Assembly: GCF_051549785.1 (NCBI RefSeq) | Contig: NZ_CP189974.1 | Coordinates: 34,093 to 98,092 of the forward strand | Reading direction: 5' to 3' | DNA: 64,000 bases | Origin: Candidatus Caldatribacterium sp. SIUC1 | GTDB taxonomy: Bacteria; Atribacterota; Atribacteria; Atribacterales; Caldatribacteriaceae | In this document: positions 31,607 to 48,186 of the stretch, in pieces | Numbering within the stretch: the first letter of the stretch is position 1 | Layout of the letters: each line of letters begins with the position of its first letter | Notes under the pieces: generated by a model | The model's database searches: none | Told to the model about the DNA's origin: nothing | Seen by the model: only the letters and a program-made list of their open reading frames with translations | Translations under genes and position numbers: made by a program

Positions 31607-32395
31607 TCAGCGAAGGACACACACCGAGCGGGGTTCGGTAAGGAGAAGGGCCAGACTCTCCGAGACGGAGAAGAGATAACCTCCCGCTTCCGGACCGATG
31701 AACCCAACCTCAAGGTCCTGACCAAGGAGAATTCGGGCGTAGGCCGGGTTCACCGCAAGAAGCACCCCTCCTTCTTTCAAGTACGGCGCCTTGACCACCC
31801 GGTCACCCACAATGGTCCTTATGTGGTCAAGCTCAATCTGTGCCGTTTCGGGGTAACGGCGGAGGAGGAGATTGTACCGCCCTGGAGAAAGCGCCAGAGC
31901 AAAGGGCCCATGGAATCCCTCTCCATCAAGAAGAGAAACGGCCCGAATGAGGTCCTCAGCCGCTTTTCCCGGTTCATCCCAGGGAGAGAGGGAGCTCTCA
32001 AGAACCCCGGAAGCTGTGCAGAGACCCTTAGAGTCCCCAAACCCTTCGAAAATCAGCCGTTCCTCAAGATGAGCAATTTTCTTCACCGCTGCCACAAGCG
32101 GCGCAAGGTCCAGGGTCACACCGTTTCGTTCAAACTGGGCAATATCGAGTTTCCTGAGGGAGAACGTCTGCTCGAGCGCCACAAGTGGCTGTCCTCCGGC
32201 AACAAGAACCCCCTCTTCAAGGGGCTTCGTCCCGAAGGGGACAAGGGCAAATCCAAGACCGAAAGGGCCTTCAAGGGGGAGAATTCTCCGTCCCGCAAGC
32301 TCCGACTTTGCCACAGAAATGGCGGTTTTCTCAAGCAACTCCCAGAAGGCCTGCCCGAAAGGCGCATCCTCTCGACCAAGGTACGAACCGCTCAC
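31607..32395 (-). CDS. family 1 encapsulin nanocompartment shell protein (linocin M18-like, HK97 fold)
   Basis: 262 aa, a typical encapsulin length. ..LAGRRILPLEGPFGLGFALVP.. and C-terminal ..LGQDLEVGFIGPEAGGYLFSVSESLALLLTEP.. match family-1 encapsulin conserved blocks. GTG start in GTGA overlap with the EncFtn stop. RBS GGAGGAGGGAGGA. Confidence 0.8.
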   Translation of the reverse strand: MSGSYLGREDAPFGQAFWELLEKTAISVAKSELAGRRILPLEGPFGLGFALVPFGTKPLEEGVLVAGGQPLVALEQTFSLRKLDIAQFERNGVTLDLAPLVAAVKKIAHLEERLIFEGFGDSKGLCTASGVLESSLSPWDEPGKAAEDLIRAVSLLDGEGFHGPFALALSPGRYNLLLRRYPETAQIELDHIRTIVGDRVVKAPYLKEGGVLLAVNPAYARILLGQDLEVGFIGPEAGGYLFSVSESLALLLTEPRSVCVLR

Positions 32396-32739
32396 TGTCC
32401 TCCCTCCTCCCGCAGGGACCCCAGGGTCGGGGTACTCTGACCGAATGAGCGAGCAAGGTCATCGACTTCCTTTGCTCCCTGCGCCAGGAAATCCGCCTCG
32501 TCCCCTGTGAGAATCTCAAGGAGTCGCAGGAATTCCCCCGCATGGACCCGTTCCTCGTTGGCAATATCAATGAGAACCTTTTTGGCTAAAGGGTGGTCAG
32601 TGGCCTCGGCGTGGGCAAGGTACAGATGCACGGCTTCTTCCTCAGCCGCGAGATTCAGACGAATGGCACGGATGAGCTCCTCTTTCGTCATCTTCCGACC
32701 GGGCACCATACCACTGAAGGGGTTCACAAACTCCGGCAA
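32392..32739 (-). CDS. encapsulated ferritin-like protein (EncFtn) cargo with C-terminal encapsulin targeting peptide
   Basis: Ferritin-like four-helix motifs ..IRLNLAAEEEAVHLYLAHAEAT.. ..ANEERVHAGEFLRLLEIL.. C-terminal ..TPTLGSLREEGGQ resembles the xLGSL(K/R) targeting peptide. Most likely start is TTG 32739 (RBS AGGAGGTG 6 nt upstream). Alternative starts are GTG 32790 or ATG 32709. Confidence 0.75.
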   Translation of the reverse strand: MPEFVNPFSGMVPGRKMTKEELIRAIRLNLAAEEEAVHLYLAHAEATDHPLAKKVLIDIANEERVHAGEFLRLLEILTGDEADFLAQGAKEVDDLARSFGQSTPTLGSLREEGGQ

Positions 32740-32791
32740 CGGTACCACCTCCTGTGAGGTTTTTAGAGTACAACCATGGTCTGTGACCACT

Positions 32792-33220
32792 TTATTCCGG
32801 GTTCTGCGTGGTCTGCCCTTTCTGACACACGCTCTCTAAAGTGTGGGAGGCAAGGTACTCCCGAAAGCGATGGGCAAACTCTCCAAGAAGCCCGCCGAAA
32901 ATGCACTCCCCGAAAGGACACTCCGGCCCCTCAAGGAGGCAGATTCGCTCAGAAACCGGCCCTTCAATGGCCGCATAGACTTCAAGGAGGGTGATGCGCT
33001 CTGGAGGGCGGGAAAGCGTGAAACCCCCTCGAGGCCCACGGGTGGACATCACAAGTTGTGCCTTGCGCAGACGCTGGAAAACCTTCGCCAGGTGGTGAAA
33101 GGAGGCACCCGTCTTTTCGGCCATCTCTTTCACCGTGAGGGGAGCGCGGCTTTTACTCAAAAGCACCATGCTGTGCAGTGCTAAAGACACAGCTTCACTG
33201 AACTGAGGAAAAGGCGACAC
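32792..33220 (-). CDS. Rrf2-family transcriptional regulator (IscR/NsrR-like, three-Cys putative Fe-S ligands)
   Basis: 142 aa. wHTH region ..LTVKEMAEKTGASFHHLAKVFQRLRKAQLVMSTRGPRGGFTL.. Cys cluster CLLEGPECPFGEC. GTG start with RBS AAGGGGTG. Confidence 0.8.
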   Translation of the reverse strand: MSPFPQFSEAVSLALHSMVLLSKSRAPLTVKEMAEKTGASFHHLAKVFQRLRKAQLVMSTRGPRGGFTLSRPPERITLLEVYAAIEGPVSERICLLEGPECPFGECIFGGLLGEFAHRFREYLASHTLESVCQKGQTTQNPE

Positions 33221-34873: not shown

Positions 34874-36196
34874 CTATTCCGTGAACCGGATGGTCTCCTG
34901 ACGAAAGGCCGCATACTCTAAGACTGATTGCTCCTGAACCTCCCTGCAGGAAGCATGAATCTCGTCAAAGTGGTCCAGAAGCATCGCCACGACATCGGCA
35001 TCCAGACCTCCCAAATTCGCCATATCTCCGAGGATTTCCCGAATACGCTGGGGCCTCAGGGCTGGTCGGTAAGGGCGGTCTTCGGACAACGCCACGAAGA
35101 CATCAGCAACGGCCATGACCCTTGACTCAAAGAGGAGTTCTTCCCTTGTTCTTCCAAAAGGATACCCTTGACCATTGCACCGTTCGTGGTGCTCCGAAGC
35201 CCACAAAGCAACGTCCTTCAGGTTTTGAATCCAGGAAAGAGCCGCAAAAGTGTAGTAGGCGTGGGACTTCATAACGCGTATTTCCTTTTCGGTCAGCGGC
35301 CCAGGTTTTTCGAGAATCTCTACCGGTACGGCTATTTTCCCCAGGTCATGGAGGAGCCCTGCCGCAAAAATAAGCTCATGCTCTCCTCTTGGGAGTCCGG
35401 TGAGTTCTCCAAGCCTGCGAGCTGTATACGCCACCCCAGCAGAATGGGTAGCCGTGAAGGCGCTCCGGAAATCAACGAGATGGGCAATAACACGGCAGAA
35501 TCGGAGGAAATCCTCCACATTTAGACACAGTTTCCCCGGAGGAACGAGGCCATGCACGATGTGGCGAAGGCGGGGCGAAGCAAGGTCAAACCACACGTAA
35601 TCCTTGGAGAGGAGTTTTCGAAATGCTTCGAAAACCTCTGGATGGAAGAGACGGGGAACAAAAGACCGGAAGAAAGGCTCTCTCTCCCGGATCTCCCCCA
35701 AGGGATCTTCCTGAAAAGAACACACGATGCTGACCCGGTCAGCGAAATGGATGACGTGGCTTTCAAGGGGAGCGGTTCTGCCACGGCCCTCTTCCCAAGG
35801 AAGATGGTGGCAACGGATAACCTCTGCAAGCGATGCAAAAGGTCCAAAGTCCTTGAGCAACACGTAGCCCACAAAAGCGTGGTGATGAGGATTACGAAAC
35901 TCAAAGTGAAGAGCGTCAAGACGCTCCAGTAGAGAGAACGCTCCGATATCGTGCAGCAGGCCTCCAATGAGGAGATCCCTGAGGGACTGCTCCGGGAATC
36001 CCAGAACCTCTCCGAGGCGAAAGGCAAGGTAAGCAACCTTCAGGTGGTGCTCAAAAAGCCGTCGATTCACAAGGTCTACCACCTCAGCAAGGCAGAGCAC
36101 GAACCCAAGAAGGGGAATACCGTAACAAGAGTCCTCTTCGTTCTCCTGTGTAGGACAAATGACGTTCCAATCCTCCATGGCGACGACACTCCCCAA
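34874..36196 (-). CDS. tandem HD-domain protein, HD-GYP-type (putative c-di-GMP phosphodiesterase)
   Basis: 440 aa. Two HD motifs (..GGLLHDIGAFSL.. and ..AGLLHDLGKIAVP..) with a downstream ..HHE.. GYP-like region. Confidence 0.7.
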   Translation of the reverse strand: MGSVVAMEDWNVICPTQENEEDSCYGIPLLGFVLCLAEVVDLVNRRLFEHHLKVAYLAFRLGEVLGFPEQSLRDLLIGGLLHDIGAFSLLERLDALHFEFRNPHHHAFVGYVLLKDFGPFASLAEVIRCHHLPWEEGRGRTAPLESHVIHFADRVSIVCSFQEDPLGEIREREPFFRSFVPRLFHPEVFEAFRKLLSKDYVWFDLASPRLRHIVHGLVPPGKLCLNVEDFLRFCRVIAHLVDFRSAFTATHSAGVAYTARRLGELTGLPRGEHELIFAAGLLHDLGKIAVPVEILEKPGPLTEKEIRVMKSHAYYTFAALSWIQNLKDVALWASEHHERCNGQGYPFGRTREELLFESRVMAVADVFVALSEDRPYRPALRPQRIREILGDMANLGGLDADVVAMLLDHFDEIHASCREVQEQSVLEYAAFRQETIRFTE

Positions 36197-37212
36197 ACTT
36201 CAGGGAAAGTATACCACAGTCCTCGTTCGTGTACATTTACCGTAAAGGTTCCAACCCAAAAGAACAAACCTCACCGTCCAGAGTATGGGGGAAATCCCAT
36301 GGGTGAAACACCACCAAAACGCTCTGGAGGTGAGGTCCCATGGATATCGGGGCTCCAGGAGATTCTGGCATGCTCTCTCCACTTCCTGGAAAAAAAGAGT
36401 GGGTTTCCAGGAGTTTGCAGAGAAGCTCTCAAAGACCGAAAGCAGTGTGGGCAGATTGAGGGTGGTCCTCGAAAGCCAAAGACGAGGCCATCCACCGGGA
36501 GAGGGATAGAAACGCCTTCCAGGTGGTCCGAAGGAAAGACCAGCGGACCGTCCTCGCCCCCTTTGGGGATGCCACCTCAAGGAAGGACCTCCTATGGGCA
36601 GAGCGACAGAGAGTGTACCTGCACCTCCTCGATGACCAGATCATCTCCGTCCTACCTTGATGCCCCTGGTGCAGGGAGTCCGGAGGCCTGTCCTGAGCGT
36701 TATGCCAGAGGGCAGAGAGAGGGTTCCTGGGAGAACGCGGAAGCCTTCTGCTCTCAAGCCTGCCCGTACCTCCCTCAGAGCTGAGGAGAATCCCAGCACA
36801 CCAGGCGCTCCCAGGCTGCAATCGGCGCCGAAGTCCACGGGAACCTCTCAGCTTGACTCTCCCACAACCCCATGGGCTCTTTGAGCCTTGAAGTTCAACG
36901 GGCGCTGAGAGAGGAAGGGAGGTTTTCCGGGAAGTCCATAACGACATCCCGGCGATGCGGAAAGCGGTGAGTGCTTTAGCACGACCTCAAGGCCCTGGCG
37001 CAGGGTACGTCCTGGGTTCCTGTGGTATGAGGTGACCGTAATCCTCTGGATAGGTAGGGTTGAAAAGGAGAAACCCATGGTGAGAGAACCAGGAGTGGAG
37101 AGAACTCGAGAAAATCCCCCTACGATAGGTTGACACCCATCCAATTCTCCCGCCTGTCACCGGCTTTTTGAGTTTGTGCTACAATGGAAGCAAAAAGGAG
37201 AAAAAATGAATC
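36197..37212. other. about 1 kb GC-rich non-coding region (long 5' leader of HD-GYP gene and/or unidentified structured RNA)
   Basis: No credible ORF in any frame. All frames are short or low-complexity and Arg/Pro-rich. Flanked by divergent genes (HD-GYP on minus, acyl-CoA ligase on plus). Contains an extended -10-like TGTGCTACAAT at about 37176-37186 for the plus-strand gene. Confidence 0.3.
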
Positions 37213-38703
37213 ATGCCGGAAACCATTCCCGAACGTCTGGAAAAAATGAGCAGGGACTACCGGGGGAAAGTCGCCATTTCCTTTCGGGGGACGCGGATAC
37301 TGTACCGGGACCTCCCCGGAATCATCGCCCAGGAAGTAGCGGCTATGCAACAGGCCGGAATACGGCCCGGGACAAGGGTAGTCACGGCCATCGGGAACAG
37401 CTGGTATGCCCTCCGATTCTACCTTGCCGCGCTCACTCTCGGCGTCATTCCCATTCCTCTTTCCCCCCGTACCCCGGAGGACATGCAAGTGAACATCCTC
37501 CGTGCCGCCTCGGCGCAGTTCCTCCTCCGTGAAGCCCCCCTCAAAGACCAGGACGTCCCCTGCGCTATCCTGAGGGAGAACGGGGAAATTTCCTACCCCT
37601 CGACCCTCCTCCCCTCTTCCATACCCCTTCCAGAGCTCGAAAGCCCTGTAGCGGCCCTCTTCTGCACTTCGGGAACTACAGGAATGCCGAAACTCGTCAT
37701 GCTCACCCACCGGAACATCCTCTCCGACATCGACAGTTGCTTCGACCTCGTCGATATCTCCCCCGAAGACCGGATGCTCGGGGTTTTGCCCATGTTCCAC
37801 GTCTTTGGGTTCTCCATCGCCTACCTCCTCCCGCTCATGAAGGGCATGACGCTCACCATTGTCCCCTCCCTGTATCCCCTTGAAGAGTTTGTCACCGCCT
37901 TGCGGGAGGACCAGTCCACCGTTTTCCTCGGTGTTCCAGCAATCTTCTCCATTCTCACCGGTGCCCGGAGAAAGACCTCCTTTGACCTCCATCCCCTGCG
38001 ACTTCTCATCTGCGGGGGCGATGCGCTGCCCTCAAGGGTGCGGGAGGCCTTTGAGGAGGCCTTTGGACTCTGCATCATTGAAGGATACGGCATCACCGAA
38101 GCCTCTCCGGTGGTGGCCGTGAATCCCTCTCCTGAGGCGCGCGTTCCCGGTTCTGCAGGACCAGTCATCAGTGCTATACGCCTGCGAATCGTCAACGACG
38201 CAGGAGAAGACCTGGGCACAAACGAGGTTGGAGAAATCCTCCTTGCCGGAGACCCCGTTTCTCCCGGGTACTTCGCCAACCCCAAAGAGAACGCTCAAGC
38301 CTTCCGGGAGGGGTGGTTCTGCACAGGGGACCTGGGGAGAATAGATGAGCAGGGAATCCTCTACATCGAGGGACGGAAAAAGGAAGTGATCATTGTCTCC
38401 GGTTTCAACGTGTATCCTCAGGAAGTTGAGGAAGTCCTCCTTGGCTTTCCCGGGGTGGCGCAGGCTGCAGTGGTAGGCGTCAAGAGAGAACTCCGGGGAG
38501 AGATGGTGAAAGCCTACATTGTGCCCCAAGAAGGAGCTTCTCTCACGCCCCGAGAGATTGTGGATTTTTGCCGGAAACACCTTCCCCCTCACAAGGTGCC
38601 ACGCCTTGTGGAAATCGTTCCTGGACTCCCCCAGACAGCCACCGGAAAGGTGATGAAATACCTCCTCACCCAGGCTGCTTCGGAGAAGGAGTACGAGGTA
38701 TGA
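37213..38703 (+). CDS. AMP-dependent synthetase/ligase (long-chain-fatty-acid--CoA ligase-like)
   Basis: 496 aa. AMP-binding motif LFCTSGTTGMPK. C-terminal ..TATGKVMKYLL. RBS AAAGGAG. Confidence 0.88.
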   Translation: MPETIPERLEKMSRDYRGKVAISFRGTRILYRDLPGIIAQEVAAMQQAGIRPGTRVVTAIGNSWYALRFYLAALTLGVIPIPLSPRTPEDMQVNILRAASAQFLLREAPLKDQDVPCAILRENGEISYPSTLLPSSIPLPELESPVAALFCTSGTTGMPKLVMLTHRNILSDIDSCFDLVDISPEDRMLGVLPMFHVFGFSIAYLLPLMKGMTLTIVPSLYPLEEFVTALREDQSTVFLGVPAIFSILTGARRKTSFDLHPLRLLICGGDALPSRVREAFEEAFGLCIIEGYGITEASPVVAVNPSPEARVPGSAGPVISAIRLRIVNDAGEDLGTNEVGEILLAGDPVSPGYFANPKENAQAFREGWFCTGDLGRIDEQGILYIEGRKKEVIIVSGFNVYPQEVEEVLLGFPGVAQAAVVGVKRELRGEMVKAYIVPQEGASLTPREIVDFCRKHLPPHKVPRLVEIVPGLPQTATGKVMKYLLTQAASEKEYEV

Positions 38704-39386
38704 AGCTTTTTGCGCTTTTTGGAGCTTTGTGTTTGCTCTGTACTTCCCAGGTTCTCGCTCTCTCTCCCGGAGAAGACCTCATCAACCGCTCCATTGAAGT
38801 CCTCTACGAGCTTTCCCGTTCCCTTGATCGCCGGATTCTCCTGCCTCTTTTTGAGAACGCCCAGAGCATCGCGATTTTCCCCGAAGTGAAACGAGTCGGA
38901 CTCTTTGTGGGCATCGCTCAGGGCGAAGGGGTGGTCTTTGCGCGGGGCAAGGACCGAAAAACCTTTTTTGGACCAGCGTTCTACACCCTTCAGGGGGTCA
39001 ACCTCGGGGTCCAGGTGGGCATCCAGTCCCAGGATATCATCCTCTTCATCATGCGACGGGTAGCCTTAGAGACCCTATCTCGGGGGTACGCAGTCCTTGG
39101 AGGGAATCTCTCCGTCACCCTGGGACCAGCGGGACGGGGAGTTTCCGTTGCCCTGGACTCTGAACTCTCCTCACCCTGCTACGCCTACGCCCTCTCCCGG
39201 GGGGTGTTCCTTGGAGTTACCCTTGAGGGAACAAAGCTCACCGAAAACGTAAAGCTCAATGAGAAGTTCTGGGGGCGAAAGGTTGAGGCGGCAACCATTC
39301 TCTCACAGTTTCTGCCCCCTGACTTTGCCTCACGGAACCTGGAACGGTTCCTGAGAGACCTCGCCAAAGGAGGTGAAAAACCCTGA
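38700..39386 (+). CDS. SYLF (Ysc84/DUF500) lipid-binding domain protein, secreted
   Basis: 228 aa. Signal peptide MKLFALFGALCLLCTSQVLA. SYLF core ..ESAQSIAIFPEVKRVGLFVGIAQGEGVVFAR.. ATGA overlap with the upstream ligase. Confidence 0.7.
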   Translation: MKLFALFGALCLLCTSQVLALSPGEDLINRSIEVLYELSRSLDRRILLPLFENAQSIAIFPEVKRVGLFVGIAQGEGVVFARGKDRKTFFGPAFYTLQGVNLGVQVGIQSQDIILFIMRRVALETLSRGYAVLGGNLSVTLGPAGRGVSVALDSELSSPCYAYALSRGVFLGVTLEGTKLTENVKLNEKFWGRKVEAATILSQFLPPDFASRNLERFLRDLAKGGEKP

Positions 39387-39394
39387 TCCGCATC

Positions 39395-39610
39395 TTGTGG
39401 TCGCTCATTGTTTTGGTGTTCCTTGTGGCGCTCTTTGCCATCCTCTTCCACACCCTTCCTCTCTTCTTCCCCTTTTTCCTGGGAAGCCTGGCGTTTCTTT
39501 TCGTTTTCCTCCTCGGCGTATTCCTCTTTGGCTGGGCGCTGCTTGTAGTGTTCCCTTTTGTCCTTGCTGGACTCACACTCTGGGCAATTCTCTGGGCGTT
39601 CGTCTTCTGA
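39395..39610 (+). CDS. small hydrophobic membrane protein (71 aa, 2 TM)
   Basis: Extremely hydrophobic, F/L-rich ORF. Its stop lies 1 nt before the next gene's ATG. Confidence 0.45.
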   Translation: MWSLIVLVFLVALFAILFHTLPLFFPFFLGSLAFLFVFLLGVFLFGWALLVVFPFVLAGLTLWAILWAFVF

Positions 39611-39611
39611 A

Positions 39612-40496
39612 ATGCGCACTCTGGGGTACTTCTGCCGCTACGTCCCCCAGGAGCTCCTTGAAGCCTGTGGCTTCACAGCCGTATTCTTCAAACCGGATTT
39701 CTCAAGCCCTCAGTTCTCCTCCCTTCCCGTTCCCTTCTGTGCGCTCTGCAAGACCTTCATCAGCTGGGCCCTGAACCACAGGGAATTCTCGGGGTTTGTT
39801 GTTCCCCTGGCATGCGATGCCTCCCGGAGGACTTACGAAATCCTCAGGGCGCTCTCTATTCCGGCTCTCCCCCTTGACGTTCCCGCTCTGGCCGGGGAAA
39901 CGGCCGTAGAGCGGCTGACCAAAAACCTGAACGAGCTTGCCCGGGAGCTTCTGGCGCAAAGTGGCCGCTCCTTTCTGGAATTCACCACATCCTTAAAGCA
40001 AGCCTTAGAGGAAACGCTCAGGCAAAGGGAAAGGTTCTCTCGGGAATGGGAAGAGCGCCGGAGGGCGTCGGACCGTATTCCTCTTCTGCTTTCGGGCTCG
40101 CATTTCGCCCACGCGCTTTTGCCCCTTCTTGAGGAGAAAGGGTTCCTGGTTTTTCCGGATCTCCCCGAAAACCGGTTTCTTCTCGGCGAAGAACCTCTGT
40201 CTCTCACCGCATCTCCCCTTGAGGACCTGGCACGCTTTATCCTCCACCGCCTTCCCTGTCCGCGGCTTTCCGGCCCTGCACGAAGAATAGCGCTCAAAAG
40301 GCTCCGTGGTACTCTTGGCCTGCGTGGAATGGTAATAGTCTTCTCCAAGTTCTGCGACTTTCAGCTTTACGATATCGGGCTTCTTGGGCGAAGCTTTGGT
40401 CTTCCCGTGCTCTGTCTTGAACACGACACCACCCCGTCTTTTCCTCAGTGGGAAACGCGACTTGATGCCTTCCGGGAGATGATTCTCCATGGATGA
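39612..40496 (+). CDS. 2-hydroxyacyl-CoA dehydratase family protein (HgdB/BcrB/BadD-like subunit)
   Basis: N-terminal signature MRTLGYFCRYVPQELLEACGF (compare the GYFCsYvPeEii.AaG family start). Conserved Cys residues. About 294 aa. Confidence 0.65.
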   Translation: MRTLGYFCRYVPQELLEACGFTAVFFKPDFSSPQFSSLPVPFCALCKTFISWALNHREFSGFVVPLACDASRRTYEILRALSIPALPLDVPALAGETAVERLTKNLNELARELLAQSGRSFLEFTTSLKQALEETLRQRERFSREWEERRRASDRIPLLLSGSHFAHALLPLLEEKGFLVFPDLPENRFLLGEEPLSLTASPLEDLARFILHRLPCPRLSGPARRIALKRLRGTLGLRGMVIVFSKFCDFQLYDIGLLGRSFGLPVLCLEHDTTPSFPQWETRLDAFREMILHG

Positions 40497-41733
40497 CATT
40501 CCCCCAGTGCTTCTTCGGATTCTCCGCTTCCTTTTTGAACGGAGAACGCTTTTCCAGCTCCTTAGGCCGTACGAGTGGTGGCTTCGCCGGAAATACCCCA
40601 ATCCAGCGCTCCCACAATTCTCCTACCAGGTGACTATCCACACCATCCGTAACCTTTACGGAAGGCGAGGGAAAATCGCCTGGGCCAGCCTCTTCTTCCC
40701 TTCGGAATTCCTCCACGCCGCCCACCTCATCCCCTTTTACCCTGAAATCGCCACCGGACTCGTCGCCGCCCTGCGTTTTGCCCAGCTTCCTCTTGCTGCA
40801 GCCGAGAAGGCCTGGTTTTCCCAGGACCTCTGTAGCTACCACCGGGGAGGTATCGGCATGAGCCTGCTCCGGCTCTTTCCCCGACCGGACTTTCTCTTTG
40901 CCACTTCAAGCATCTGCCACGGGACGGTAGGATTCTTTGAGGTCCTACGGGAAATCTGGAACGTTCCCCTCTTTCTCGTAGATGTCCCGAAGCAGTGGAC
41001 CCGGGACGCGGAGAGGTACGTCGCCGAACAGCTCACCAATATCGCCAGGCGTTTAGAAAGGGAGTGGCATGTCCGCTTTGTGTGGGACAAACCTTTCTTG
41101 CTCTCTAACAGAACCCGGGAGATTCTCCTTGAAGTAGAGGCACTGCGCCAGAGGAAAGACCGGATGCTCCTTCCCCCAACCAAAAACCTCGACTACCTCC
41201 CGTACTACTACGAATTCCTGGGTGAGGAGACATCACGCTGCTTTGCCGAACGCCTGAAGGAAGAACTCGCAAAACCCTCCAAAACCCTGCCACATCGTCT
41301 CATCTGGCTTCACCTCAAGCCCTTCTACTCAGGCGAACTTCCGGCCCTCCTTGAAAAGCTCGGCCTCGGGGTGGTGTACGAGGAGTTCACAACACCCTTC
41401 CCCGAGGAACTCTCTCCCTCTTCGCCCCTGAAGTCCCTGGCGCGGAAGATTCTCTGGGCCAGCGAAATCCTGGCCACTTCCCGGGGGCGCATATCGGGAA
41501 TTCTCGAGGCGCTGAAGAGGTACGACGCAGAGGGCGTCATTCAGTGCACCCAGTGGGGGTGTCGCCAGAGCCAGGGAATGGTCATGCTTCTTCGGGAAAA
41601 ACTCCTTGAGGCAGGGTATCCGGTGCTCTTTCTTGATGGTGACCACCTCGACCGGCGACACAGCGCCCCGGAGCAACTCCGTACACGTCTTGAGGCTTTC
41701 CTTGAGGTGCTTGAAGGAAGGGGGAGCTTCTAA
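40489..41733 (+). CDS. 2-hydroxyacyl-CoA dehydratase family protein (HgdA/HgdB-like second subunit)
   Basis: 414 aa. ..IAWASLFFPSEFLHAAHLIPFYPE.. family motif. 8-nt overlap with the upstream paralogue. Confidence 0.65.
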   Translation: MDDIPPVLLRILRFLFERRTLFQLLRPYEWWLRRKYPNPALPQFSYQVTIHTIRNLYGRRGKIAWASLFFPSEFLHAAHLIPFYPEIATGLVAALRFAQLPLAAAEKAWFSQDLCSYHRGGIGMSLLRLFPRPDFLFATSSICHGTVGFFEVLREIWNVPLFLVDVPKQWTRDAERYVAEQLTNIARRLEREWHVRFVWDKPFLLSNRTREILLEVEALRQRKDRMLLPPTKNLDYLPYYYEFLGEETSRCFAERLKEELAKPSKTLPHRLIWLHLKPFYSGELPALLEKLGLGVVYEEFTTPFPEELSPSSPLKSLARKILWASEILATSRGRISGILEALKRYDAEGVIQCTQWGCRQSQGMVMLLREKLLEAGYPVLFLDGDHLDRRHSAPEQLRTRLEAFLEVLEGRGSF

Positions 41734-42786
41734 TCCTCAAAAGTGAACCTCTTTTCCTGGAAAATCCGAAGACAGGCATCAAACGCAGCCTCGTCGTAGA
41801 ACACGCCCCGCCCAGGAGCAATCTCCCGCAGGGTCTCCTGCAGCTCCAGTGCAGAGCGGTAAGGGCGGTAGTATGTCATGGCTTCCACCACATCGGCCAC
41901 GGCAAGAGTACGGGCTTCAACGAGGATTCCCCCGAAGGCCATGAGGGTATCCGGAGCCGTTCATCCGCTCGTGGTGCTCAAGAATGGCCTTCGCTTAGGG
42001 AGCCAGAAGCTCAACCGAGGAAACGATGTCGTAACCCTTTTTAGGATGCTCCTCCACAATAGCCCGCTCAAGAGGCGCAAGCTTCGCCGGTTTGTTCGGA
42101 ATTTCCCCGGGAATGGCAATCTTGCCAATGTCATGAAGGAGACCAGCGATGGAAACTTCACGGATTTTTTCCTCCGAAAACCCCATCTCCCGGGCAAGAA
42201 CCCTTGCAAGCCGTCCGATGGTCTCCTCAGCGCTTGCAAAACCCAGGATTCGCACCATTGCCGGGTTGGCATCGAGAATCGTCCCTTCCCGAGAGGTGTG
42301 GTAAAGACCCAGGGGAACATTGTCGAAAAGACGCTGGTACTGAACGTGAAGCTCCAATGAGAGCCGTTGTACAGCCAAGAGATTCTCCACCCTGGCCTTC
42401 AGCTCCGTCTGGTCAATGGGAGTGGTGATGCCCTCATCCACCACAACCCACAGAAAGTGCATCGCCAGACCAAGGTCTCCCCGGGAGGTGACGAGCATAG
42501 AGGGGAGAAAGAGCGGAGCCTCCTGCTCTCTGCGTTTTTGCATCACCGCCCTCAAGGACCGAAGCACTGGCCTATCCACGATGCCCAGGGAGAAATCCTC
42601 CTCAAGCAGAGCCCTCTCAAGAGAACCTGTGGGAGAAAAGGGAAGATGATTCCACGAGCAAGGGTGAGAGGAGGAAGCTGCTGTTCCTGGAGTCTTTAGG
42701 GAGTAATGCCTGACCAAGCATCCGTCGAACTTTAGACCCAGGGTCAGCTCATGGAACGATGGGGAACTGAAAGATGAAATATCCAC
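41730..42786 (-). pseudogene. disrupted response-regulator/PAS/HD-GYP gene (in-frame TAA plus frameshift in a G-run)
   Basis: ORF 41995..42786 encodes a REC C-terminal half, a PAS fragment and the HD motif (AGLLHDIGKIAIP). After a TAA at 41995-41997 the same frame continues AKAILEHHERMNGSGYPHGLRG (canonical HHExxDGSGYP). The reading then shifts frame at CTTCGGGGGAATC (about 41925-41937) into ..ILVEARTLAVADVVEAMTYYRPYR (ORF 41730..41942). Confidence 0.55.
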
Positions 42787-42925
42787 GTGATCCTTGGTAC
42801 GAGCTTTAGCCTAAAGATACGCGGTCAACAACTTTCCTAAGCCGGGGCTATGACGAGGCCAAGGTCTCTGATCATTTCCAAATCCAAGGAGGATTCTCGA
42901 CCTTGGGTGGTGAGGTAGTTGCCGG

Positions 42926-43720
42926 TCATGAGGGAATCGGCACCCGCCAGAAGACCCAGGGGCAGGAGTTGTCGCAGGGTTTTTCTTTCCCGCCACAGAG
43001 CCTAATGTTCTTGTCGGGAAGGATAAAACGAAAGACCGCCACGCTCTTCAGGGCTTCCCAGGGTTCCATAAGGGGTCGATGCTCCAGAGGGGTACCTGGA
43101 ATGGGGTTGAGAACGTTCAGGGGAACAGCATCAACATCCAGCTCGCGAAGGAGCAAGGCCAGTTCCACCCTTTGGGCCGGGGTTTCCCCCATGCCCAGGA
43201 TACCTCCACAACAAACCTTCAACCCTGCTTCCTTAGCTACCTCAACGGTAGCTATGTCCTCGGCAACGTCGTGGGTGGTACAGATTTGGCGAAAGAAACT
43301 CGGCGCTGTTTCCAAGTTGTGATGGTACATACAAAGCCCGGCTTCCTTTAACTCTCTGGCCTGTTCCGGTGTGAGGAAGCCAAGGGAAGCGTCAGGCCAG
43401 ATTTTTCCTTCCGTAGCGATAACCTCAACTGCCCGAAGGATTTCCCGCCACTCTTCTAGAAGGCTTATTCTGGCGCCACTAGTGACGATCCCGAAGCGGT
43501 GGACCCCACTGGCTGCGGCACTGCGGGCGCGCCTTATCAGTTCTTCAGCAGGAAGAAGAGGGTAGACGTCCACTGCCGTGCGGTGGTAGGCGGACTGAGC
43601 ACAGAAGGCGCAATTTTCTGTGCAACGCCCAGACTTGGCGTTGACAATGGAGCAGAGCCCAACAGCAGCTCCCTTGTAGACCAGGCGTATCCGGTGGGTC
43701 GCTGCAAGCAGGTCCATCAT
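42926..43720 (-). CDS. bioB: biotin synthase
   Basis: 264 aa. Radical SAM CxxxCxxC (CTENCAFCAQ). BioB-type ..VCCGGILGMGE.. motif. Confidence 0.9.
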   Translation of the reverse strand: MMDLLAATHRIRLVYKGAAVGLCSIVNAKSGRCTENCAFCAQSAYHRTAVDVYPLLPAEELIRRARSAAASGVHRFGIVTSGARISLLEEWREILRAVEVIATEGKIWPDASLGFLTPEQARELKEAGLCMYHHNLETAPSFFRQICTTHDVAEDIATVEVAKEAGLKVCCGGILGMGETPAQRVELALLLRELDVDAVPLNVLNPIPGTPLEHRPLMEPWEALKSVAVFRFILPDKNIRLCGGKEKPCDNSCPWVFWRVPIPS

Positions 43721-43732
43721 AGCCTCTTGTGG

Positions 43733-43778
43733 CAGGTTATAACCATAAGTTTAAACAAGGTTAACGTATTTCTCAACT
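43733..43778 (-). promoter_or_regulatory. candidate bioB promoter with overlapping palindromes (possible BirA operator)
   Basis: Minus strand TTGAGA-N17-TAAACT. The palindromes GTTAACC, GTTTAAAC and GGTTATAACC (43735-43744) overlap the spacer, the -10 and the +1 region. Confidence 0.3.
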
Positions 43779-43991
43779 CTATCCCTCAAAACCCTAGCGG
43801 GGTCAGAAAGTGCAGGATTCATAGAGAGCGATGAAGCTCAGACAATAGACGTATAGGTATTTGAACAGAACGAATGCCGGATTGCAAGGTACGCAGGAAC
43901 AAACCACAAACCAAAATCGCAACAAATCCTGACCAAGTCCAGGGGCTAAAACCACTCGGATAGAGCTGATACAGGTCCTACTTTCCTGAAC

Positions 43992-44020
43992 TTGCAAAGC
44001 GTGCCGCAGTTCGCTAACAT
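43992..44020 (+). promoter_or_regulatory. candidate sigma70 promoter for icd
   Basis: TTGCAA (43992-43997), 17-nt spacer, TAACAT (44015-44020). RBS GGAGGT before the ATG at 44053. Confidence 0.4.
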
Positions 44021-44052
44021 TCCCTTACAAAGGAGACAAAGGAGGTTGCGCC

Positions 44053-45144
44053 ATGTACCGGGTGACGCTGATACCGGGAGACGGAACCGGACCGGAAATC
44101 ATCGAAGTTGCGACAAGGGTCATTGAAGCCACCGGGGTACCCATTGAATGGGACATCCAGGAAGCCGGTGCAGAGGTCATCGAAAAGTACGGTACTCCCC
44201 TCCCGCCACAGGTTCTTGAGTCCATCAGGCGAAACGGTGTCGCCCTGAAGGGTCCCATCACCACACCTGTGGGGACAGGGTTCCGGAGTGTGAACGTCGC
44301 GCTCCGGAAAGAGCTCGACCTCTACGCCTGCGTCCGGCCCTGTAAAGTGTACCCGGGCGTCCGTTCCCGCTACGAGAACGTTGATCTTGTGGTCATCCGG
44401 GAGAACACCGAGGACCTCTACGCCGGAATTGAGTTCGAGCGGGGCAAACCCGAGACTCTGGAATTCATCGCCACCGTGGAGCGCCTGGGGAAGGGGAAAA
44501 TCCGTCCGGATTCTGGCATCAGTGTGAAACCTATCTCGGTCTTCGGTGCTGAGCGCATCGTGCGATTCGCCTTCGAGTACGCCCGAAAGCACAGGCGGAG
44601 AAAGGTCACCGCAGTCCACAAGGCCAATATCATGAAGTACTCCGACGGGCTTTTCCTCGAAGTCGCCCGGGAAGTGGCCAAGAATTACCCCGATATCGAA
44701 TTCGAAGACCGCATCGTCGATAACATGTGCATGCAGCTTGTCCAAAAGCCCGAACTCTACGACGTCCTTGTGCTCCCGAACCTCTACGGAGACATCGTCT
44801 CCGACCTTGCCGCCGGACTCGTCGGAGGACTGGGAGTGGCCCCGGGAGGGAACATCGGGGACCACTATGCGGTTTTCGAACCGACCCACGGGAGCGCACC
44901 GAAGTACAAGGGGCTCCACAGGGTGAATCCCATCGCCACCATCCTCTCGGGGGTCATGATGCTCCGCCACCTCGGAGAGGAAGAAAGAGCGGATCTCCTC
45001 GAGCGTGCCGTGGCCGCCGTCATCCGGGAGGGGAAAAAGGTCACCTACGACCTGAAGCCTGACCCCAGCGACCCAGAAGCGGCGAAAACCTTTGAGGTGG
45101 GTGACGCCATCATCGAAAAGATGGAGGAGCTGAAAAGAGGATGA
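44053..45144 (+). CDS. icd: isocitrate/isopropylmalate dehydrogenase family enzyme, most likely NAD(P)-dependent isocitrate dehydrogenase
   Basis: 363 aa. N-terminus [19 protein letters not shown]. ..[27 protein letters not shown].. metal/substrate motif. Confidence 0.85.
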
Positions 45145-46547
45145 GGGTACTCCTCGTCCAGCCCCCATCTCCGGGAATTTACGATCTCATCGGCCTGAAA
45201 CTCCCACCCCTTGGTCTGGCGTACCTTGCGGCGTCATGCCGTACCCACCACGAGGTTGCCATTGTGGACCTCCAGGTTGAGGATGCAAAGCGCTTTGAGG
45301 AAGAACTCAGGCGGTGCGACCTCGTGGGCATCACGGCGACCACAAGCACCTTTCCCGAAGCCCTCCGGATAGCCCGGAAAGCCAAAGGCGAAGGCCGATT
45401 GGTGGTCATGGGTGGATACCATGTCACCTTCAGGGATGAAGAGGCCTTAAGAAGTGGCGTGGTGGACTACGTTGTGCGGGGGGAGGGAGAGGAAATCTTT
45501 GTGGAACTCCTTGAAGCCCTGGAGCGGGGAATGTCCCCGGAGAACGTTCCGGGTATTTCCTTCCTGCGGGAGGGGACAGTCTTCCGCACGCCCACTTCTT
45601 TGCCACCCCAGGACCTCGATGTCTTGCCTTTCCCGGCCCGGGACCTCCTGCAACTCTCCAAGTACTGGATGACCCAGCTTGAGGGAGAACCCCTGGTGAA
45701 CGTCCTGACGAGTCGCGGATGCCCTTTTGCCTGCAAGTTCTGCGCCTCCTCCCACTTCTCGGGAAGGAAATGGCGGGCCCGCTCTCCGGAGAATATCCTC
45801 CGGGAGCTTGAAACCCTCTACTTCGACTGGGGATTCCGGGCCGTGGCCTTTGTGGACGATAACTTCACCCTGCAGCCTGAACGGGTGGAGCGCCTCTGTG
45901 AGGAGATCGAGCGACGACGTCTGAAACTCCGGTGGTGGTGCTTCTCCCGGGCGGACACCATCGTCCGCCATGAGTCCCTGGTGAAAAAGATGGCGAAAGC
46001 CGGACTTCGCATGGTGTACCTTGGTCTTGAGAGCGCCGAGCGGGCCATTCTCGAAGACTACGGGAAGCAGCTCACCCAGGAGGTAGCCAGGAAGGCCCTG
46101 GAAATCCTCCGCAAGTACGGAGTAAAAAGCTGGGGGTCGTTCATCCTTGGAAGCCTCCGGGAAACGAAGGCCACCATCCGGAAAACCGTTGAATTCGCCC
46201 GGAAAATCCGCCCCGATATCGTGCAGTTCTCCCTCCTCACGCCTTTTCCCGGAACGGCGCTTTTTGAGGAGCTCCAGAGGGAAAACCGCATTCTCCCCCT
46301 CAGCTGGTCGCTCTTTGACGGTGCCCACCCCGTGGTGAGGCTCGACACCTTAAAGCCCGGGGAGCTCCGTCGACTGCTCATCTCGGCGTACCTTGAGGTG
46401 TACCGGGGATGGCATGCCCTGCCACAGGCTGTGCAATTTTTGCGGAAACTCTGTACTGTGAAGATTCCTTTCCTTGCGCGTTTTAAGGAACAACGCTATC
46501 TGAAGGAGCGGATGAACCGTGAAAATCCTTCGCTTTCTGCATCCTGA
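45141..46547 (+). CDS. B12-binding domain-containing radical SAM protein
   Basis: 468 aa. N-terminal cobalamin-binding domain. Radical [15 protein letters not shown] overlap with icd. Confidence 0.85.
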
Positions 46548-47283
46548 GCGACGCACGCCCTCCTGGGGAAGGCTCCTTGAAGGAGACGTGGTCGAGGAAA
46601 TCACCTCTCCCTTTGGAAAGGGAACAGGACGGGGAGCACGCTTCTTCCTTAGGGACCTCCGGATCCTCCCTCCCGTGCGACCGAGCAAAATCGTGGCCGT
46701 GGGCCTCAACTACAAAGACCACATCGCTGAGCTTGGCCAGAGCGTTCCTGAAAACCCTATCCTCTTTTTGAAGCCCCAAACAGCGGTCATCGGGCCGAAA
46801 GAACCGATTCTCCTTCCTCCCTGTTCCAGCCGGGTGGATTACGAAGCAGAACTTGCGGTGGTGATGAAACGACGAGCCTTCCGCCTGAAGAAAAGTGAGG
46901 TCCGGGACTACATCCTCGGCTACACCTGCTTCAACGACGTCACTGCTCGGGACCTCCAGACCAAAGACGGGCAATGGACACGCGCAAAATCCTTCGATAC
47001 TTTCGCTCCCCTTGGTCCCTGGATTGAAGATGAACTCGACCCGGAGGACTGCACGGTACGGTGTTTTGTGAACGGCACCCTGAAGCAGGAAGGCAACACC
47101 CGGATGCTCCTTTTTCCGGTGGAGGAGCTCATCGTGTTCATTTCGGAAATCATGACCCTTCTTCCCGGGGACGTCATCGCCACGGGAACCCCAAAGGGTG
47201 TTGGACCGCTTGCTCCCGGGGATGTTGTGGAAGTGGAGGTTGAGGGTATCGGCATCCTGCAGAATCCTGTAGCCGCAAGGTAG
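46519..47283 (+). CDS. fumarylacetoacetate hydrolase (FAH) family protein
   Basis: 254 aa. ..KIVAVGLNYKDH..YEAELAVVM..GDVIATGTPKGVG.. FAH fold. GTG start. Confidence 0.85.
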   Translation: MKILRFLHPERRTPSWGRLLEGDVVEEITSPFGKGTGRGARFFLRDLRILPPVRPSKIVAVGLNYKDHIAELGQSVPENPILFLKPQTAVIGPKEPILLPPCSSRVDYEAELAVVMKRRAFRLKKSEVRDYILGYTCFNDVTARDLQTKDGQWTRAKSFDTFAPLGPWIEDELDPEDCTVRCFVNGTLKQEGNTRMLLFPVEELIVFISEIMTLLPGDVIATGTPKGVGPLAPGDVVEVEVEGIGILQNPVAAR

Positions 47284-47289
47284 GGCACA

Positions 47290-48186
47290 ATGAGCCAGGT
47301 CCTCGGGTTGATGTTTGCGCTCATCGGCCTTGGGTTTCTCCTGCGGGTTCTCCGGGTTTTCCCGAAAGAAACCGCTCCTTTACTCAATCGCTTCGTCCTC
47401 TACGTGACCTTCCCGTGTCTTGTTTTCCGCTCCCTCCAGGGAGCCACCTTAGACCGGAGGCTGTGGGGCATCCCACCCCTGGCCTACATGGCCATCAGTG
47501 CCCTCTTCCTCCTCGCTTTCCTCATAGGGTCGAAGGGTTTCCGCCTTCCCCCCAGGCGGGCAGTGAGTTTTGCCATGGGCGCAGCCTTTGGGAACACCGC
47601 ATTCTTAGGATACCCCTTCATCCTTGCCCTCCTTGGGGAAGGGGGGTTACCGGCAGCCATCTTCTATGACCAGCTCGGGAATTTCCTCTCAGTCTACACC
47701 CTGGGGGTAACGTTTTGCGTGTTCGGGAAAACGGGGAAGTTCTCGGGGAAAAACGCCGCGGAATTCCTGAAACTCCCTCCCTTCAACGCCTTCCTCCTGG
47801 CGCTCCTCCTCAACGGTCTTCCCTTGCCACCCTTTCTCCTTGGCGTCATTAACCGTCTGGCTGATGCCACCGTTCCCCTCACCATGGTGGCCATCGGCCT
47901 TGCCCTCTCCCCTGCCAGCCTCTCCAAAGATGCGCCACTCCTTGGTGCCTCAGCCCTCCTCAAGCTCCTTCTCCTTCCCCTTGTGGCTTTAGGGCTTGTG
48001 AAGCTCTTCCCCCTTCCCCCGCTTTATGCGAAGGTCCTTGTGCTCCAGTCGGCCACACCGACTCTGGTGAGCTCCTATGTCTTTGCCTCGGTGTATGAAC
48101 TCGACACCGAACTCTCCTCAAGCATTATCTGCGTAACGACGCTCATCGCTTTGGGAAGTCTTCCCCTCTGGAATCTCCTCTTTTAG
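47290..48186 (+). CDS. AEC family transporter (auxin efflux carrier-like permease)
   Basis: 298 aa, about 10 TM. N-terminus MSQVLGLMFALIGLGFLLR. Confidence 0.8.
   Translation: MSQVLGLMFALIGLGFLLRVLRVFPKETAPLLNRFVLYVTFPCLVFRSLQGATLDRRLWGIPPLAYMAISALFLLAFLIGSKGFRLPPRRAVSFAMGAAFGNTAFLGYPFILALLGEGGLPAAIFYDQLGNFLSVYTLGVTFCVFGKTGKFSGKNAAEFLKLPPFNAFLLALLLNGLPLPPFLLGVINRLADATVPLTMVAIGLALSPASLSKDAPLLGASALLKLLLLPLVALGLVKLFPLPPLYAKVLVLQSATPTLVSSYVFASVYELDTELSSSIICVTTLIALGSLPLWNLLF

Follow-up and report, generated by a model that had tools for sequence, protein, structure and literature searches.

An operon for a probable ATP-dependent radical enzyme of the BCR/HAD family in Caldatribacterium, with its probable activase gene located elsewhere in the genome

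We analyzed a 64,000-nucleotide stretch of Caldatribacterium DNA (64 kb, hereafter the window) that carries five co-directional genes on the plus strand. We consider it likely that together they form a working operon whose product is an ATP-dependent radical enzyme in the benzoyl-CoA reductase/2-hydroxyacyl-CoA dehydratase family (BCR/HAD, Pfam HGD-D) and that the activase of this enzyme is supplied in trans. The genes encode an AMP-forming acyl-CoA ligase (37213-38703, 496 amino acids (aa)), a protein with a SYLF/Ysc84 domain (38700-39386, 228 aa), an ultra-hydrophobic membrane protein without a family match (39395-39610, 71 aa), and two HGD-D paralogs that we call S (39612-40496, 294 aa, N-terminus MRTLGYFCRYVPQELLEACGF) and L (40489-41733, 414 aa). 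An earlier note, made from the sequence of the window alone, had reported the same five genes and suggested a CoA-activation and radical module of this family, which our analyses support. It had also entertained an activase-independent enzyme, and this part found no support when related genomes were compared.

Family assignments came from Pfam and NCBIfam profile searches, and none of the proteins scored above an NCBIfam equivalog cut-off. Both paralogs exceed the Pfam HGD-D gathering score of 28.4 (L, 194.5 bits, 4.8e-57; S, 104 bits, 1.7e-29), in agreement with the earlier assignment of the pair to an HgdB/BcrB/BadD-type family. The best NCBIfam model for L is HadB (61.7 bits, 4.8e-17, vs a cut-off of 750), followed by ‘double_cubane’ (NF040772; 49 bits, cut-off 350) and BzdO/BcrB. 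The NCBIfam BCR models reach 36-38 bits vs cut-offs of 449-487. In the Protein Data Bank (PDB), L matches HadB (3o3m_A) at 3e-12, BzdO at 7e-10 and the double-cubane cluster protein DCCP at 2.5e-9. Across 107 homologs, L has three invariant cysteines, C115, C143 and C358. Aligned with them are BzdO C95, C128 (one residue off as the alignment is printed) and C380 and the HadB equivalents; the three predict a [4Fe-4S] cluster with one open Fe site. E86 is also present in all 107 homologs and W65, the counterpart of BzdO Trp46, in 92% of them. L carries a HadB-like YPE motif rather than the GEP of BzdO. BzdO His131 has no counterpart in L, and Glu65 has only an offset one (E86, on the other side of a conserved Pro).

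By profile score and ligand pattern, the S subunit is closer to double-cubane proteins than to HadC. Its best NCBIfam model is ‘double_cubane’ (46 bits), and the HadC model scores 15.3 bits (cut-off 700). Sequence matches in the PDB are HadC, BzdN and DCCP. The same three lead the Foldseek results for an AlphaFold2 model of S with a pLDDT of 82.7 (DCCP 6eno, HadC 3o3m_B, BzdN 8s02_B; TMq 0.76-0.80); they match about equally, and part of their central helical domain is absent from S. We mapped the cysteines of S against published ligand lists: the [8Fe-9S] cluster of BzdN is held by Cys36/73/100/263/293/327 (PMC11971306), and DCCP has the seven-cysteine motif CX19CX18-19CX29CX166-170CX32-34CX32C (PMC7317905). 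Five invariant cysteines of S (C8, C43, C68, C216 and C248) occupy five of the six double-cubane ligand positions, and C19 is an additional, clade-specific cysteine. Judging from homology to the BzdO ligands, C43, C68 and C248 would form the proximal sub-site and C8 plus C216 two-thirds of the distal one. At the sixth position (BzdN Cys263, DCCP ‘EETC’), 16 of the 17 Atribacterota S sequences have Pro, in the conserved context ED-S-P-L-G / DLPE, and Atribacter laminatus has Ala.

To place this pattern, we aligned 156 S-type sequences, made up of the 150 best relatives among 1.84 billion cluster representatives and the sequences from this study. All six double-cubane cysteines are present in 126 of them, and 18 five-cysteine sequences form the Atribacterota clade. 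C8 and C216 are invariant across genera, though the S proteins are only about 30-35% identical, and some metal site probably persists there. We considered C19 as a replacement for the sixth ligand. The topology speaks against it: in the model, C19 lies where helix 13-18 ends and strand 2 is about to begin, at the edge of the Rossmann-like sheet opposite the C8 cluster loop. It is also missing from 2 of the 18 five-cysteine clade members. The ligand pattern thus suggests that S descends from a carrier of a double-cubane [8Fe-9S] cluster, and the double-cubane character proposed in the earlier note stands for five of the six ligands but not for the sixth. Some S subunits from other lineages (L021 6000-7037, from Anaerolineae; P0286 and similar) keep two of the six cysteines, in the pattern -C---C, yet they occur in an S-L-activase triplet; the cluster content of the accessory subunit seems to vary widely across the family.

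Characterized members of the family depend on an ATPase of the BcrAD_BadFG type, and a tblastn search of the window with two operon-linked Atribacterota activases gave no hit (best E-value 0.06), as the earlier note had stated. In sister lineages, a BcrAD_BadFG gene starts 5-15 nucleotides (nt) after L. Its product has 257 aa in Atribacter laminatus (CP065383) and 250 aa in Atrimonas thermophila (AP028803). A cis activase also lies directly 3' of L in locus L013 and in 8 further Atribacterota metagenome loci, whose L proteins are 53-57% identical to that of the window. All 14 of the Caldatribacterium or Caldatribacterium-like loci examined lack an activase in cis.

Caldatribacterium has an activase gene elsewhere. 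With the L013 activase as query, we retrieved a clade of proteins of 255-269 aa that are 62-63% identical to it. One orthologous stand-alone activase occurs in every Caldatribacterium genome examined, and in four Caldatribacterium assemblies its position between Dak1-Dak2 and a DeoR-ABC sugar cluster is conserved. One copy shares a contig of 1,092,938 bp with operon locus L001, about 435 kb away, and another is found in assembly GCA_025060675, the home of operon locus L010. The 90%-identity cluster of these activases includes C. californiense and the complete genomes of C. saccharofermentans (2,255,665 bp) and Caldatribacterium sp. SIUC1 (1,967,957 bp), both described as isolates (PMC13408713). 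The two complete genomes encode S and L as well. L and the activase are separated by 36 accession numbers in strain GBS (XTJ29654, XTJ29690) and by 834 in SIUC1; if accession numbers follow gene order, which we assume, the distance between the two genes differs between species.

In a neighbor-joining tree, the stand-alone activases nest inside the operon-linked Atribacterota activases, and they retain both cluster-cysteine motifs, NDKCAAGTGRF and TCAVFAESE. When we compared four stand-alone activase loci (±10 kb) with the window by blastn and tblastx, we detected generic ABC-ATPase similarity only. Therefore, no syntenically arranged activase lies within about 10 kb of the two ends of the window. 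The genes at these ends are ilvD/ilvB and flagellar/tatD, and neither dak nor deoR is found there. We conclude that the activase gene was, as far as gene order and phylogeny indicate, relocated out of the operon in the Caldatribacterium ancestor, and that the enzyme is probably activase-dependent in trans rather than activase-independent.

The operon is conserved beyond the window. In a scan of species-representative genomes, which placed the window in Candidatus Caldatribacterium, the L protein of the window was 94% identical to that of C. californiense and 91% identical to that of C. saccharofermentans. The order ligase-SYLF-small open reading frame (ORF)-S-L is conserved through Caldatribacterium, and its species keep the operon even where identity falls to 69%. 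Purifying selection acts on all five genes of the window, with pN/pS values of 0.07-0.43 overall and 0.07-0.19 for the four large genes (ligase 0.07-0.08, SYLF 0.13-0.15, S 0.14-0.17, L 0.14-0.19). Within the operon, the SYLF start codon at 38700 overlaps the ligase stop as ATGA, S starts 1 nt after the stop of the small ORF, and L overlaps S by 8 nt. These junctions agree with the tight coupling described earlier, which does not extend to the junction between SYLF and the small ORF: the latter starts with TTG, 8 nt past the SYLF stop. The ligase has a ribosome-binding site (GGAGA) 10 nt upstream. A promoter and terminator scan of 36000-44200 gave nothing above the shuffled expectation, and an Rfam scan of the whole window gave no match.

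The ligase matches Pfam AMP-binding (2.5e-67) and AMP-binding_C (1.3e-22), and its adenylation motifs are intact (TSGTTGMPK and the C-terminal GK lysine). Its best NCBIfam model is PRK06187, a long-chain-fatty-acid-CoA ligase (370 bits vs a cut-off of 476). The nearest PDB entries are feruloyl- and fatty-acyl-CoA synthetases and oxalate- and malonyl-CoA ligases, and they point to no one substrate. We tried to read the substrate from the NCBIfam and PDB matches together, and this was uninformative, the protein being equally far from fatty-acyl, feruloyl, oxalyl, malonyl and aryl ligases. In locus L001 (6785-8271, GCA_017880035.1) the ligase is split into ORFs of 419 and 89 aa. It is intact, with 495 aa, at the same locus in a Logan assembly (L002, 5231-6718), and the split is probably an assembly or frameshift error and not biology.

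The SYLF protein matches Pfam Ysc84 (1e-30) and, as read from its sequence, has an N-terminal Sec signal peptide, MKLFALFGALCLLCTSQVLA followed by LS. It has weak similarity to the BPSL1445 SYLF lipoprotein (NCBIfam) and to PDB 7ofn, a ‘Lipoprotein’. The ATGA overlap couples its translation to that of the ligase. The Caldatribacterium, Atribacter and L013 operons contain the SYLF gene; the Atrimonas operon does not. The 71-aa protein has no Pfam or NCBIfam match and probably has 2-3 transmembrane helices. All Atribacterota loci, those of Atribacter, Atrimonas and L013 among them, have an ORF of 65-75 aa at this position ahead of S (in L010, 89 aa if counted from the first start codon). Within Caldatribacterium, the motif FPFF.PF.LGSLA...LGVF.LGWALL is conserved and pN/pS is 0.14-0.43. 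The small ORF is a real gene, kept at the same position in three genera. A role in handling a hydrophobic acid at the membrane is possible for both proteins.

We then considered the wider family. Homologs of L are almost all from Atribacterota, and a metagenome scan seeded on the L family recovered more than 486 relatives, from which we kept 65 non-Atribacterota loci. In these the order S-L-activase is the rule. Exceptions without a cis activase include L020 and the soda-lake loci L040, L068, L077, L083 and L087, and one lineage has L fused to the activase. Most of the wider family consists of self-contained S-L-activase triplets, spread over many anaerobic phyla and unaccompanied by partner genes for fermentation or aromatic degradation. 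For 79 co-directional neighbors, Pfam statistics revealed no CoA-transferase, electron transfer flavoprotein (ETF), acyl-CoA dehydrogenase or 2-hydroxyacid dehydrogenase. As a clue to the substrate, these statistics failed: they returned only lineage-specific GerMN, radical-SAM/SPASM and housekeeping genes and no catabolic partner families. The commonest neighbor, at 21 loci, is a secreted GerMN-domain protein (PF10646, roughly 180 aa) encoded directly upstream of S (L038, L042, L045-L049, L055, L056, L058, L062-L064, L067, L071, L073, L075, L079, L086, L094 and others).

Taken together, these observations suggest the following mechanism. The AMP-forming ligase would turn a carboxylic acid into a CoA thioester. 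L would be the catalytic subunit, in which the free Fe site of the three-cysteine [4Fe-4S] cluster faces the thioester, and S an electron-relay subunit, derived from a double-cubane protein and keeping five of the six cysteines of that site. A homodimeric BcrAD_BadFG activase would hydrolyze ATP to push a low-potential electron through S and L to the substrate, generating a ketyl-type radical. In Caldatribacterium, the activase gene lies between the dak genes and the DeoR/ABC sugar cluster, and its product would serve the enzyme in trans. For the reaction itself, we lean slightly toward a HadB-like elimination or dehydration of a substituted acyl-CoA over a two-electron reduction.

Several points weigh against this interpretation. 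The activase in the window's own genome is deduced from the closest relatives, and its service to the S-L pair is a further deduction. The stand-alone activase could in principle serve another HGD-D partner. In two Caldatribacterium-like loci, L009 and L011 (L 69-71% identical), the other four genes are present with no ligase within 10 kb, and therefore the ligase is not obligatorily linked either. The genes expected of a catabolic pathway are also missing beside the module: neither in the window nor in Atribacter, Atrimonas or among the co-directional neighbors of the 65 distant loci did we detect adjacent genes for a CoA-transferase, 2-hydroxyacid dehydrogenase, ETF/acyl-CoA dehydrogenase or dienoyl-CoA pathway. 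The 2-Hacid_dh gene of Atrimonas is about 4 kb downstream of its operon, outside it and on the opposite strand. Finally, the hints on reaction type conflict, L appearing HadB-like but S BzdN/DCCP-like.

The specific alternative that survives best, which we regard as possible but doubtful, is a BzdNO-like ATP-dependent reductase, in which S stores electrons in a double-cubane-derived cluster and L carries out a two-electron reduction of an aromatic or other acyl-CoA. The five or six BzdN/DCCP ligands in S and in 126 of the 156 S-type sequences fit this reading, and two-electron accumulation has been proposed for the [8Fe-9S] cluster of BzdN (PMC11971306). L shares three cysteine ligands and the Trp46 counterpart with BzdO, and the ligase is as close to aryl- and feruloyl-CoA ligases as to fatty-acyl ones. 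However, class I BCRs have two different ATPase subunits vs the one activase gene here, L departs from BzdO at His131 and Glu65, and the NCBIfam BCR models score far below their cut-offs. In addition, Atribacteria lacked downstream genes of the benzoyl-CoA pathway in a published survey (PMC6776118). Previous genomic work on this group went no further than noting genes annotated as bcrBCD, with hgdABC as best hits. A literature search for Atribacter together with 2-hydroxyacyl-CoA dehydratase found no paper.

We judge it unlikely that the operon encodes a classical 2-hydroxyacyl-CoA dehydratase of the HgdAB/HadBC/FldBC/LcdAB type, acting in amino-acid or lactate fermentation and primed by a FldL-like CoA ligase. 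HadB is the best characterized match of L, the YPE motif and the missing His131 counterpart are in line with it, the orthologous operons have a single activase gene as HAD systems do, and database annotations say so. Yet the scores are far under the equivalog cut-offs (61.7 vs 750 bits for HadB), and S keeps two distal double-cubane ligands, none of which HadC has at the aligned positions. The CoA-transferase, 2-hydroxyacid dehydrogenase and acyl-CoA dehydrogenase/ETF are unlinked in three genera and 65 distant loci. An AMP-forming ligase is energetically unsuited to bulk fermentation, and isolated Caldatribacterium ferment sugars to acetate and H2 (PMC13408713).

A further reading is more speculative, and we would give it a slim chance. 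The Atribacterota S-L enzyme would link, as a natural intermediate, the [8Fe-9S] carriers (BzdN/DCCP) with the HadC type and its [4Fe-5S] cluster, and its second sub-cluster would rest on two cysteines and a non-cysteine ligand. With the conserved SYLF protein and small membrane protein, the operon would be a membrane-linked route for the capture, CoA activation and radical conversion of a hydrophobic acid.

The activase-independent variant, in which ferredoxin or some other donor passes electrons straight to S-L and the stand-alone activase has a different role or none, is very improbable. It would account for the lack of an activase in the window and beside any Caldatribacterium operon, for the altered cluster site of S in the phylum, where Pro replaces the fourth double-cubane ligand, and for the few other lineages without a cis activase (L020 and the soda-lake loci). 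However, the change from Cys to Pro is common to Atribacter, Atrimonas and L013, whose operons keep the activase, and therefore it does not correlate with the loss of cis linkage. The stand-alone activase is an ortholog of the operon-linked one with its Fe-S ligands kept, and it is retained in every Caldatribacterium genome checked. No member of the family is known to work without an ATP-dependent reductase (PMC7317905, PMC11971306). This includes DCCP, which needs the ATP-dependent DCCP-R (PMC7317905), so that a double-cubane type, which the earlier note had raised as a possibility, would not imply independence from an activase. The preferred reading, an activase acting in trans, agrees with the search that the note itself had proposed: an activase gene was found elsewhere in Caldatribacterium genomes, although for the window's own genome this comes through relatives.

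That the loss of the cis activase left a decaying, non-functional remnant is scarcely credible: an unstable region of varying length between species lies just downstream, where a PAS-HD gene is split and a BioB-like gene is short, and the ligase is absent from L009 and L011, but the five genes are intact and under purifying selection, the cysteine ligands are invariant, and Caldatribacterium species keep the operon down to 69% identity.

The neighbors of the operon in the window are housekeeping or otherwise unrelated genes. Upstream, from the far end inward, these are SecA, an encapsulin with a rubrerythrin-like protein and Rrf2, an RNA methyltransferase, hemerythrin and an HD-domain protein. 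The encapsulin cassette (31607-33220, minus strand) comprises a shell protein (Linocin_M18, 2e-63), a small rubrerythrin-like protein and an Rrf2 regulator. Its synteny extends to L001, and it looks like a nanocompartment for iron or oxidative stress. Immediately downstream, a PAS and HD-GYP-like gene (41730-42786, minus strand) is split into ORFs of 263 and 70 aa. The 263-aa ORF ends in HD_5 at profile position 96 of 170 and the 70-aa ORF has the C-terminal ADVVEAMTYYRPYR motif; the split is probably a frameshift or marks a pseudogene. The stop of the 70-aa fragment overlaps the L stop. This entire segment of 2.3 kb is absent in C. californiense (L007), in which Iso_dh is about 190 bp past L. 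A BioB-like radical SAM protein follows (42926-43720, minus strand). It has only 264 aa, covers only positions 1-46 of 88 of the BATS domain, and may be truncated. Cultured Caldatribacterium are reported to be vitamin-dependent, and the requirement includes biotin for strain SIUC1 (PMC13408713).

Beyond these genes, tightly overlapping plus-strand genes (44053-48186) encode Iso_dh (isocitrate/isopropylmalate dehydrogenase), a B12-binding radical SAM enzyme, an FAA hydrolase and an AEC-type transporter, which follow the S-L operon in Caldatribacterium. B12-binding radical SAM proteins 32-33% identical to that of the window are encoded just downstream of S-L-activase in two unrelated metagenome loci (L055, 7232-8695; L067, 7600-8961). 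This recurrence may be coincidence.

Our analysis removes an apparent anomaly, a BCR/HAD radical enzyme without an activator, by the relocation of the activator gene within one genus. It also defines a widespread, uncharacterized S-L-activase branch whose accessory subunit has the set of double-cubane ligands that, up to now, was described for BzdN and DCCP alone. In Atribacterota, a five-cysteine version of this site is fixed. Atribacter, Atrimonas and Caldatribacterium are now in culture, and the system is tractable for testing whether, as proposed, double-cubane accessory subunits evolved into single-cluster ones, and for the search for a new ketyl-radical substrate. If the membrane-linked route is real, it might connect to the unusual multilayered membranes of Atribacterota. 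Nothing falls outside the known logic of the family; new are the five-cysteine site of S, the shortened S, the extracytoplasmic accessory genes and the relocated activase. On present evidence, we consider the advance incremental and not surprising.

We compared the system with its characterized relatives. HadBC with its activator HadI (PDB 3o3m) is likewise a heterodimer of two HGD-D paralogs whose large subunit has a three-cysteine [4Fe-4S] cluster and a YPE motif. The orthologous operons of our system encode a single-gene, presumably homodimeric, BcrAD_BadFG activator, and a CoA thioester substrate is expected in both cases. However, the similarity between L and HadB is remote. S is about 80 aa shorter than HadC and has two extra distal-sub-site cysteines (at the positions of BzdN Cys36 and Cys293), which are absent in the aligned parts of HadC. 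An AMP-forming ligase replaces the CoA-transferase, a fermentation pathway context is lacking, and genes for a secreted SYLF protein and a small membrane protein belong to the operon, with the activator encoded elsewhere in Caldatribacterium.

BzdNO (PDB 8s02; PMC11971306) offers the same division of roles, with a catalytic three-cysteine [4Fe-4S]-OH2 site in BzdO and, by analogy, in L, and double-cubane ligands in the accessory subunits BzdN and S. There, as we propose for our system, an aryl/acyl-CoA ligase supplies the substrate, and complexes with the Bzd-type ATPase module are only transient. S differs in having five ligand cysteines and not six, with Pro as the BzdN Cys263 equivalent. 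One activase gene stands in place of BzdP and BzdQ, there are no dienoyl-CoA pathway genes, and L deviates from BzdO at His131 and Glu65 as described above.

DCCP with DCCP-R (PDB 6eno, 7yyl; YjiM/YjiL type) has the best fold and NCBIfam similarity to S, which shares five of its six cluster ligands, and it needs a homodimeric, ATP-driven reductase that belongs to the same family of ATPases. In contrast, DCCP is a homodimer of one seven-cysteine protein, whose channels are too narrow to admit CoA esters. Our system has two different paralogs: L keeps three cysteines and none of the distal ligands, and S lacks one ligand and the seventh cysteine. A CoA ligase is attached as well.

The closest sequence relatives are the uncharacterized S-L-activase triplets of Anaerolineae, Actinomycetota (Humimicrobiia-like), Desulfobacterota, Bacillota and other anaerobes, with L proteins 28-38% identical. 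In common with our system, they have S ahead of L, the three cysteines of L, the double-cubane motif of S and contexts that are housekeeping rather than catabolic. Unlike the Caldatribacterium operon, most have all six S cysteines and a cis activase and are without the ligase, the SYLF protein and the small membrane protein. In one lineage, the secreted GerMN-domain protein is encoded upstream instead, which parallels the secreted SYLF protein of the Atribacterota operon.

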